Shown: positions 4,512-64,000 of the stretch, one piece after another
How the letters are laid out: every line of letters starts with the position of its first letter
How positions within the stretch are numbered: position 1 is the stretch's first letter
NCBI RefSeq assembly: GCF_056746865.1
Contig: NZ_CM163382.1
DNA: 64,000 nucleotides
Reading direction: 5' to 3' (one strand)
Notes under the pieces: model-generated
The model's input: the letters and a program-made list of their open reading frames with translations, nothing else
Database searches by the model: none
Told to the model about the DNA's origin: nothing
Program-made: the position numbers and the translations under genes

Positions 4512-6026
<1,515 letters not shown>

Positions 6027-62100: not shown

Positions 62101-62261
62101 CACCGTCCCGGAATGGCACGTCACTGGACCTGCAGGCCGGACTGGAAGCCCGTGTCCGGGAAAATATCACCCTGGGCGTTCAGGCCGGTTATGCCCACAG
62201 TGTCAGCGGCAGCAGCGCTGAAGGTTATAACGGTCAGGCCACGCTGAATGTGACTTTCTGA
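59142..62261 (+). CDS. flu: Antigen 43 self-associating autotransporter
   Basis: 1039-aa product from [25 protein letters not shown] (extended autotransporter signal), repetitive Gly/Thr/Asn-rich beta-helix passenger, C-terminal beta-barrel ending in F. Confidence 0.9.
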
Positions 62262-62283
62262 TAATCAGGTCACTCTCCTTCAG

Positions 62284-62311
62284 GCCCCGGTCATCATGAC
62301 CGGGGCTTTTT
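62284..62311 (+). terminator. Intrinsic terminator after flu
   Basis: CCCCGGTCAT-c-ATGACCGGGG followed by CTTTTT. Confidence 0.65.
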
Positions 62312-62331
62312 ACTTTCAGGGAGCAACAGAT

Positions 62332-62490
62332 ATGCCGGGTTGTACATCACGTTTATTGCCCGAAGGCCCTTTCTCACGCGAACAGGCTGTTGCCGTCAAA
62401 ACAGCTTACCGCAATGTGTTTACTGAAGATGACCAGGGAACATATTCCCGGCTGGTTATCCGTAATGCTGAAGGTCAGTTGCGCTGGTGA
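62332..62490 (+). CDS. Small hypothetical protein (52 aa)
   Basis: ATG 8 nt after [41 protein letters not shown]...; ORF track start 62296 lies inside the terminator. Confidence 0.4.
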
Positions 62491-62644
62491 TGCTGGAACA
62501 CAGCTTAATACTCAGCTCGCCAGTTAAGGGCTTCTCAGACAATAAACGTCATTCATTTCATCTGTCAGGCCGCGTCTTCTCCGGGAGACGTGGCTTTTTC
62601 ATTTATTACACCAGTAAATCGTAACCACCGATAAGGAGCAAATT

Positions 62645-63463
62645 ATGCGACTAGCCAGTCGTTTTGGTTATGCGAACCAGATACGCCGTGACCGTCCGCT
62701 GACACACGAAGAACTGATGCACTATGTTCCCAGTATTTTCGGTGAAGACCGGCATACTTCCCGCAGTAAACGATATGCGTACATTCCCACCATCACCGTA
62801 CTGGAAAGCCTGCAGCAGGAAGGTTTTCAGCCATTCTTCGCCTGCCAGACCCGCGTGCGCGACCCGGGCCGCCGGGGATACACAAAACACATGCTGCGTC
62901 TGCGGCGGGCCGGAGAGATAAACGGAGAACATGTCCCTGAAATTATTCTGCTCAACTCTCATGACGGTACCTCCAGCTACCAGATGCTGCCGGGTTACTT
63001 CAGATTCGTCTGCCAGAATGGCTGCGTCTGCGGTCAGTCTCTGGGGGAAGTGCGTGTTCCACACCGGGGAAATGTGGTGGAGAAAGTTATCGAAGGGGCT
63101 TACGAAGTGGTGGGGGTTTTTGACCGGATTGAGGAAAAGCGTGATGCCATGCAGTCGCTGGTCCTGCCGCCACCGGCACGCCAGGCGCTGGCACAGGCGG
63201 CACTGACTTACCGTTATGGTGACGAACATCAGCCGGTCACCACCGCTGACATTCTGACACCACGACGCAGGGAGGATTACGGTCAGGACCTGTGGAGCGC
63301 ATATCAGACCATCCAGGAGAATATGCTGAAAGGCGGAATTTCCGGCCGCAGTGCAAAAGGAAAACGTATCCACACCCGTGCCATTCACAACATCGACACC
63401 GATATTAAGCTCAACCGCGCATTGTGGGTAATGGCAGAAACGCTGCTGGAGAGCCTGCGCTGA
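62645..63463 (+). CDS. DUF932-family protein (YfjQ/YafZ-like)
   Basis: 272-aa ORF; typical neighbour of GTPase and antirestriction genes in CP4-type islands; family assignment from memory. Confidence 0.65.
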   Translation: MRLASRFGYANQIRRDRPLTHEELMHYVPSIFGEDRHTSRSKRYAYIPTITVLESLQQEGFQPFFACQTRVRDPGRRGYTKHMLRLRRAGEINGEHVPEIILLNSHDGTSSYQMLPGYFRFVCQNGCVCGQSLGEVRVPHRGNVVEKVIEGAYEVVGVFDRIEEKRDAMQSLVLPPPARQALAQAALTYRYGDEHQPVTTADILTPRRREDYGQDLWSAYQTIQENMLKGGISGRSAKGKRIHTRAIHNIDTDIKLNRALWVMAETLLESLR

Positions 63464-63804
63464 TGCAGCATGTCCCTGAAAGCGTGATTCAGGCACCAGA
63501 ATCACCCGACGCCCCGGAGGCGCTGCCGGGGTGTCGTTCCATTTCTGATGATGACCTGTGCGCCTGGTGTACCCGTCTGCTTTACCGTCCCGGAGAAATC
63601 AGTCTGTGCAGACTGAGTATACAGGCAATGGCATCTGGCCATCCGTCTGTGACCGGAACGGTTACGCGTACGGCTGTCCGGAATTTCAGCCGAATATCAT
63701 TCATCCCTGATATTACCGGGTCATCACGGTCAGTGATGAACGTGATGTTGCCAGCTCCCGACCTTTACTCCCTCTCATTTATTCACATTACAAGGATTTC
63801 ATAC

Positions 63805-64000
63805 ATGAAAACATTGTCTCAGAACACCACCTCTTCGGCCTGTGCACCGGAGACTGACCTGCAACAACTGGTAGCCACTCCCGTCCCTGATGAACGGCGC
63901 ATCAGCTTCTGGCCGCAGCACTTTGGCCTCATTCCACAGTGGGTGACCCTGGAGCCCCGTATCTTCGGCTGGATGGACCGTCTGTGTGAAGACTACTGCG
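63805..64000 (+). CDS. KlcA/ArdB-like antirestriction protein, partial (runs off window end)
   Basis: ...ISFWPQHFGLIPQWVTLEPRIFGWMDRLCEDYC resembles KlcA core motif; AGGA RBS 11 nt upstream; an in-frame upstream ATG at 63463 is also possible. Confidence 0.55.
   Translation, partial: MKTLSQNTTSSACAPETDLQQLVATPVPDERRISFWPQHFGLIPQWVTLEPRIFGWMDRLCEDYC

Follow-up and report, generated by a model that had tools for sequence, protein, structure and literature searches.

Characterised antirestriction proteins of the ArdB/KlcA type are single-domain proteins of 134–157 amino acids (aa); ArdB of PAI II of Escherichia coli CFT073, which was among the proteins tested, has 157 aa, and YafX and YfjX have 152 aa (PMC2836571, Table 1). 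The Pfam family to which they belong, PF03230, includes ORF14/ArdB of the CFT073 island, YfjX and YafX of E. coli K-12, and also the 142-aa KlcA of IncP plasmids. None of the characterised members carries an N-terminal extension of 114 aa. In decaying prophages and islands of the CP4-6, CP4-44, and CP4-57 type, small indels break one gene and merge its reading frame with that of a neighbour, and the same situation is encountered at the end of the window, i.e., the whole 64,000-nt stretch of DNA analysed here. There, an open frame of 114 codons precedes, in frame, the start of an antirestriction gene of the above family. We estimate the probability at roughly 90% that this frame is a by-product of gene decay and not a designed N-terminal extension, its upstream part being a frameshifted pseudogene of a small gene with conserved cysteines. 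The case differs from a typical chimeric pseudogene in that the indels sum to +3 and run into an intact, independently initiated gene, and in that the allele is unusually frequent.

The open frame and the antirestriction gene

The window contains what are very probably three consecutive genes of a CP4-44/CP4-57-like island, i.e., a DUF932 gene, a small Cys4 gene, and ardB/klcA. The features discussed below are the following:

62645–63463, plus strand: DUF932 gene, 272 aa, from the list of open reading frames (ORFs); Pfam PF06067, E = 1.1e-52; annotated as DUF932 domain-containing in an identical genome
63463–63710, plus strand: remnant of a small gene with a Cys domain (81 aa when intact), bounded by its ancestral ATG and TGA (63708–63710); frameshift after codon 52
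63618–63621, plus strand: TATA in place of TA, a 2-bp tandem duplication in the small gene, from DNA alignments
63711–63804, plus strand: spacer between the small gene and the antirestriction gene; holds AAGGA at 63792–63796; translated only on paper
63723, plus strand: 1-bp insertion (A) in the spacer, GGGTCATCACGG versus GGGTCTCACGG, from DNA alignments
63805–64000, plus strand: 5' part of the ArdB/KlcA-type antirestriction gene (157 aa in full), cut by the window end
63463–64000, plus strand: fused ORF, 271 codons in the full locus, of which 52 are native to the small gene, 35 are out of frame, 27 stem from the spacer, and 157 encode ArdB

The stop of the DUF932 gene (TGA, 63461–63463) shares its A with the ATG at 63463–63465 (ctgcgcTGATGcag). 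A previous reading of this DNA, made from the letters and their ORFs only (hereafter the sequence-only reading), had noted this TGATG overlap and a frame that stays open from it through 63805 to the end of the window. Our translation confirmed this: 63463–63999 comprises 179 codons and zero stops, and the peptide that had been quoted from it (...DDDLCAWCTRLLYRPGEISLC...) was indeed found. The Met of the KlcA-like protein, which begins MKTLSQNTT..., is codon 115 of this frame (ATG 63805; 63805 − 63463 = 342 = 114 × 3) and is preceded at a distance of 8 nt by AAGGA (63792–63796). The remaining two frames contain 6 and 5 stops across the same 342 nt. Based on the local base composition, a 114-codon stretch would be open by chance with P ~0.012. 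The stretch is, therefore, open to an extent that exceeds chance and that needs explanation. Two explanations had been offered, i.e., a separate small upstream gene whose stop could not be seen, or a Cys-containing N-terminal extension of the antirestriction protein of ~114 aa, with a leaning to a short antirestriction protein on account of the good ribosome binding site before 63805.

Several lines of evidence agree with this leaning. The PF03230 domain (125.8 bits at a cut-off of 25, E = 7.7e-37) covers residues 176–271 of the fused ORF, i.e., 62–157 of the short form, and the match to PHROG 10132 (139 positions, E = 2.5e-61) covers residues 136–271. RefSeq annotates, in a 100% identical genome, a protein of 157 aa from ATG 63805 (WP_000855064, locus L001, 3506–3979). 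The AAGGA and the ATG of ardB are kept in all aligned alleles. The comparison of lengths with the YfjX/YafX/KlcA homologues, which had been proposed as a check, points in the same direction: of the two forms, only the short one (157 aa, versus 271 aa) fits a single-domain family of 134–157 aa, and lengths of 143–159 aa were found for the orthologues of other genera. The ORF from 63805 shares PF03230 and a length of 157 aa with ORF14/ArdB of CFT073, the protein tested being likened to that of the window by length. The functional antirestriction protein is thus probably the 157-aa form that starts at ATG 63805 with its own AAGGA, since the family models begin inside it, the known lengths are 134–157 aa, and AAGGA and ATG are conserved. 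The 114 residues upstream, which set the window ORF apart from the characterised ArdB/KlcA proteins, represent a frameshifted upstream gene plus a spacer.

A small upstream gene and two indels

The counterpart of the upstream frame is found intact in other E. coli islands. The islands of E. coli AF10 (97.9% identical to the window) and OkiPb01679 (92.5%) have in its place an annotated gene for a “hypothetical protein” of 81 aa (WP_016234192 and WP_000680583), which starts at the same DUF932-overlapping ATG and ends at a TGA matching 63708–63710 of the window. These proteins, encoded in islands with DUF932, ardB, radC, DUF987, and cbeA/cbtA, are identical to the window copy in their first 52 residues, but the latter has a TA duplication and has lost residues 53–81 and the stop. 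Full-length homologues (79–88 aa, 51–64% identity) occur in Enterobacter, Citrobacter, Klebsiella, Yersinia, Serratia, Salmonella, and Mixta. For the small gene dN/dS amounts to 0.09–0.43 (Nei-Gojobori), with synonymous sites that are saturated between genera. The gene order DUF932, small gene, Antirestrict, RadC, and on to CbeA is kept in Yersinia intermedia, Klebsiella, and Serratia marcescens; in the Klebsiella and Serratia loci DUF987 and CbtA were called as well. The orthologues in these three genera, with 84–87 aa, occupy the same place as the window gene, and in all three the start codon begins with the final base of the DUF932 stop (ctgATG). Judged by this conservation, the small gene is a real gene, shared across the Enterobacterales.

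The distance between the starts of the small gene and the antirestriction gene is 392 nt in Yersinia, 271 nt in Klebsiella, and 352 nt in Serratia, and each small gene has its own stop. Modulo 3 these distances give 2, 1, and 1, so the in-frame relation to ArdB is not conserved. In intact E. coli alleles the distance is 339 nt, i.e., both genes lie in one frame, and the spacer of 31 codons is free of stops in the ArdB frame. DNA alignments of the window with the islands that are 92–98% identical to it reveal only two length differences, i.e., the TA duplication and the extra A. The former pushes the frame of the small gene past its TGA (63708–63710); the latter, at 63723, restores the ArdB frame ahead of the TGA at 63734–63736, at which the 90-aa products (...ITGSHGQ) of alleles with only the TA duplication end. 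The net change of +3, the frame shared by the small gene and ArdB, and the open spacer together result in a single uninterrupted ORF of 271 codons. This also accounts for the openness of the 114 codons, since 52 of them are true coding codons, 35 are alternative-frame codons of the same gene, and 27 are spacer codons. That the 62 out-of-frame and spacer codons stay open by chance has P ~0.09.

Past codon 52 the window frame reads IQAMASGHPSV..., and the WPSVCDRNGYAYGCPEF segment with the stop that follows it sits in another frame. A different frame of the window (63558–63710) still encodes the true C-terminal end of the small protein, NGIWPSVCDRNGYAYGCPEFQPNIIHP, and its stop. The frameshift has removed residues 53–81, including W58, P59, Y67, and C71. 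Because the C-terminal half (W-P...D-x-D-G-Y-x-x-x-C) and the gene's own stop are not in frame, the window copy is regarded as a pseudogene of the Cys4 family. Of the two explanations offered previously, that of a separate small upstream gene thus holds in so far as a conserved family of 81–87 aa exists at this place; the stop is, however, not merely out of sight but bypassed through the TA duplication, and the gene is broken here. The extension of ~114 aa is not a feature of the family but the result of two indels that joined the frame of the small gene to that of ArdB. A stop codon between the two starts in homologues, which had been named as the finding that would speak against such a continuous frame, is present in E. 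coli, Yersinia, Klebsiella, and Serratia.

With regard to translation, the change of TA to TATA after codon 52 carries reading past the TGA of the small gene, and the single base inserted into the spacer shifts it once more, ahead of the next stop. Ribosomes terminating on DUF932 may reinitiate at 63463, probably by coupling at the conserved TGATG overlap. Such ribosomes would run into ardB and would yield at most a minor 271-aa chimera that lacks the WP...DGY...Cys71 half; most ArdB would come from its own start at ATG 63805.

It could be supposed that the full small protein is still made, through programmed ribosomal frameshifting or transcriptional slippage at the TATA, giving a product that would span ...CRLS-TGNGIWPSVCDR..., and the out-of-frame part downstream of the TATA is indeed still identical to that of intact alleles. 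A recent mutation accounts equally well for this identity, and the sequence at the site, CUGAGUAUACAGG, holds neither a slippery heptamer nor a homopolymer run: the shift point CTGAGTATACAGG is not of the X XXY YYZ type. The 2-nt insertion would moreover require a −1 or +2 shift, it is absent from most homologues, and intact alleles without the TATA site are both common and ancestral. We regard such a recoding event as very improbable.

The fused allele among E. coli genomes and the decay of the island

Of 5,426 complete E. coli genomes, 4,465 contain the region, as judged by a megablast search with positions 63300–64000; one of them, FDAARGOS_497, matches it with 100% identity. Both indels are common: among complete-genome records, 1521 carry an exact copy of the 62-mer that includes the TA duplication and 1397 an exact copy of the 61-mer that includes the extra A, compared with 788 for the exact intact 60-mer. 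Single-base and dinucleotide indels are typical errors of sequencing or assembly, but the presence of the two words in so many independent complete-genome records, and of the combined 146-mer in ~1,250, leaves a negligible chance that those in the window have this origin; the population counts exclude sequencing error.

The linkage of the two indels was derived from exact-word counts, a spread sample of 60 records, and the best 60 of 4,253 places. At ≥99% identity the 146-nt stretch across both indels was present in 1554 of the 2594 region-bearing records, i.e., in ~29% of complete E. coli genomes. The exact 146-mer with both indels occurs in ~1,250 complete genomes, versus 6 for the exact 145-mer with one indel. 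In the 60 records sampled at even spacing, the best places of full length measured 146 nt, 143 nt (neither indel), and, once, 142 nt, with 145 or 144 nt in none; the 146-nt class of this sample consists of alleles with both indels or of a diverged allele that has another insertion of 3 bp. Alleles with only the TA duplication were encountered in Nissle 1917 and, on three SNP backgrounds, in contigs from metagenomes, and the existence of such intermediates fits with two successive indels. The most economical scenario is that the TA duplication came first and the A insertion next, after which the haplotype spread with a successful island. Its abundance could reflect hitch-hiking with that island.

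The same numbers might be taken as a sign of selection on the fusion itself. The second indel would then have been favoured because it couples the translation of ArdB to that of DUF932, or because a long isoform with half a Cys domain is useful, and the skew between the net +3 haplotype (~1,550 complete genomes) and the exact one-indel intermediate (6) would be explained. The haplotype also occurs in varied strains (O104:H4, S88, ATCC 11775, and pig and chicken isolates), and the TGATG overlap should bring ribosomes to 63463. The ORF is still open, with 268–271 aa, in the three SNP variants of the fused haplotype that were sampled, but this says little because their divergence is so small. Indeed, ~1,250 genomes share the 146-nt haplotype at 100% identity, which is what the recent spread of one allele should produce. 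What would have been selected is, moreover, an extension made of 62 out-of-frame and spacer codons plus half a domain from which the fourth conserved Cys is gone, and a chance of ~0.09 that these 62 codons are open is not small. ArdB retains its own conserved Shine-Dalgarno sequence and start, and in other genera the small gene and ArdB are not in frame with each other. Nor do the sampled natural multidomain relatives of the small domain ever combine it with ArdB: PF03230 was found in 0 of 20 of these, and DUF6876 in 1 of 20. A Cys domain and an antirestriction domain in one polypeptide were thus not encountered in other taxa, i.e., in these 20 relatives and in the three genera with separate frames. 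Selection for the fusion is, consequently, considered improbable, and decay of the small gene is the reading that we retain.

Decay is also evident elsewhere in the island. In FDAARGOS_497 the RefSeq order is Ag43, DUF905 (frameshifted), DUF932, an unannotated gap, the antirestriction gene (157 aa), JAB/RadC, DUF987, a YeeU-family antitoxin, and a truncated cbtA. The DUF905 gene, annotated by RefSeq as a frameshifted pseudogene in this identical genome, is a second decayed gene of the island. In the window this gene, which comes just after Ag43, is broken into two ORFs that overlap (62296–62527), with 62296–62490 matching positions 2–46 of the 70 of PF06006. The cbtA gene of the CbeA/CbtA pair is cut to a 99-nt fragment (L001, 5376–5474, beyond the window end), which is followed by a gap and then mtnK, and the YeeU-family antitoxin gene beside it is intact; the fragment and the intact antitoxin gene together indicate that the right end of the island is truncated. 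The small gene itself has been inactivated in other ways. In a diverged class that forms ~8% (5/60) of the spread sample, a 76-bp deletion between CCCGGAG direct repeats, located at ~640–720 of L020 (NZ_CP041996.1) and L021 (NZ_CP178711.1), has removed the CxxC core and left an ORF of 25 codons. A fusion to transposase sequence, probably through an IS insertion (P0085), and other frameshifts (P0010, P0013) were also observed. Taken with the damage to DUF905 and cbtA, these independent losses of the small gene point to relaxed selection on a decaying element.

Strong terminator-like hairpins with T-runs are located at 62282–62308, after Ag43, and at 62567–62596, after the DUF905 remnant. Nothing in 62200–64000 came near any gathering score in an Rfam scan; sub-threshold matches to sRNAs at 62238–62321 fall on the hairpin after Ag43 and probably just reflect a terminator. 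A scan for promoters and terminators revealed nothing bearing on the spacer. A terminator-like hairpin inside the small gene (63507–63536) was treated as a chance occurrence.

The fused ORF is an ordinary frameshift pseudogene joined into a chimeric ORF. Only its high frequency and the uncharacterised family that it involves are remarkable; the frameshift in itself is of little consequence. It does call for caution in annotation, as gene callers that prefer the longest ORF yield a 271-aa “antirestriction” or “restriction endonuclease” protein. RefSeq has no annotation over the small gene in this allele, and some gene callers called the exact 271-aa product on at least 137 contigs (P0122). Names have also spilled over, as seen in the protein database entries P0122, P0136, P0137, and P0141: the chimera has been deposited once as “restriction endonuclease [Proteus mirabilis]”, and UniRef or NCBI give the name “antirestriction protein” to several of the unrelated small proteins of 81 aa, though these do not possess a PF03230 domain.

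The Cys4 domain family

The compact Cys4 family to which the small gene belongs has no curated entry and is a by-product of this analysis that is perhaps more useful than the fused frame. An exhaustive profile search yielded 313 representatives at 50% clustering, 79 of them at E ≤ 1e-10. Members in the window and in the loci compared are:

Window, 63463–63710
L002, 1664–1909
L004–L007
L015, 4941–5177
L016, 5007–5243

Common to the family is a core of ~50 aa, S-I-S-D-D-D-L-C-x-x-C-x-x-L-x-Y-x-P-G-E-x-S-x-C ... W-P ... D-x-D-G-Y-x-x-x-C. The N-terminal motif of this core, the positions of which are invariant or nearly so in the family alignments, is present in the window as codons 26–49 (SISDDDLCAWCTRLLYRPGEISLC). 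The four conserved cysteines (C33, C36, C49, and C71 in E. coli numbering) suggest a putative metal (zinc) site.

Profile scans of the 81-aa protein gave zero matches in Pfam, NCBIfam, PHROGs, and PADLOC, and a sequence profile search of the PDB gave only matches at chance level (E ≥ 0.066). AF2 with a diverse alignment of 80 sequences produced a confident model (pLDDT 87.7, pTM 0.74) with short strands and one short helix; a shallow alignment of enterobacteria only resulted in an unusable one (pLDDT 50.5). No structural neighbour of the confident model was found in the PDB or in BFVD (predicted viral protein structures).

A tblastn search with the small protein gave no match in phage records. 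Homologues were detected on 1,170 plasmids, of which 1,128 are conjugative. On IncL/M pOXA-48-like plasmids and on a related IncFII-typed plasmid the homologue lies in the leading region, between an Hha-like gene and DUF1380, with an antirestriction gene downstream and mobA near; ssb is also annotated on the IncL/M plasmid. These ORFs of 78 aa (MTTLHI...RSISDDDLCASC...) contain the same Cys domain with 46.7–55.8% identity (tblastn), and, like the small gene of the window, they precede an antirestriction gene, here at a distance of a few genes and near ssb and mobA. Unlike the window copy, they are plasmid-borne and intact and are not preceded by DUF932. Leading regions are rich in anti-defence and establishment genes (PMC11541004). 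Given this enrichment and the location of the homologues, the family is a reasonable candidate for plasmid establishment, and the small domain may have a role in establishment or anti-defence, which is a reasonable guess.

On the pOXA-48-like IncL/M plasmid of locus L015 (NZ_CP068898.1) RefSeq annotates a 71-aa ORF with an ATG start (4975–5190, WP_004206914.1) in a frame without the family motif. The conserved family member is the overlapping 78-aa ORF with a GTG start at 4941–5177, and the equivalent GTG ORF is annotated on the plasmid of L016. The wrong frame is probably annotated on many pOXA-48-type plasmids.
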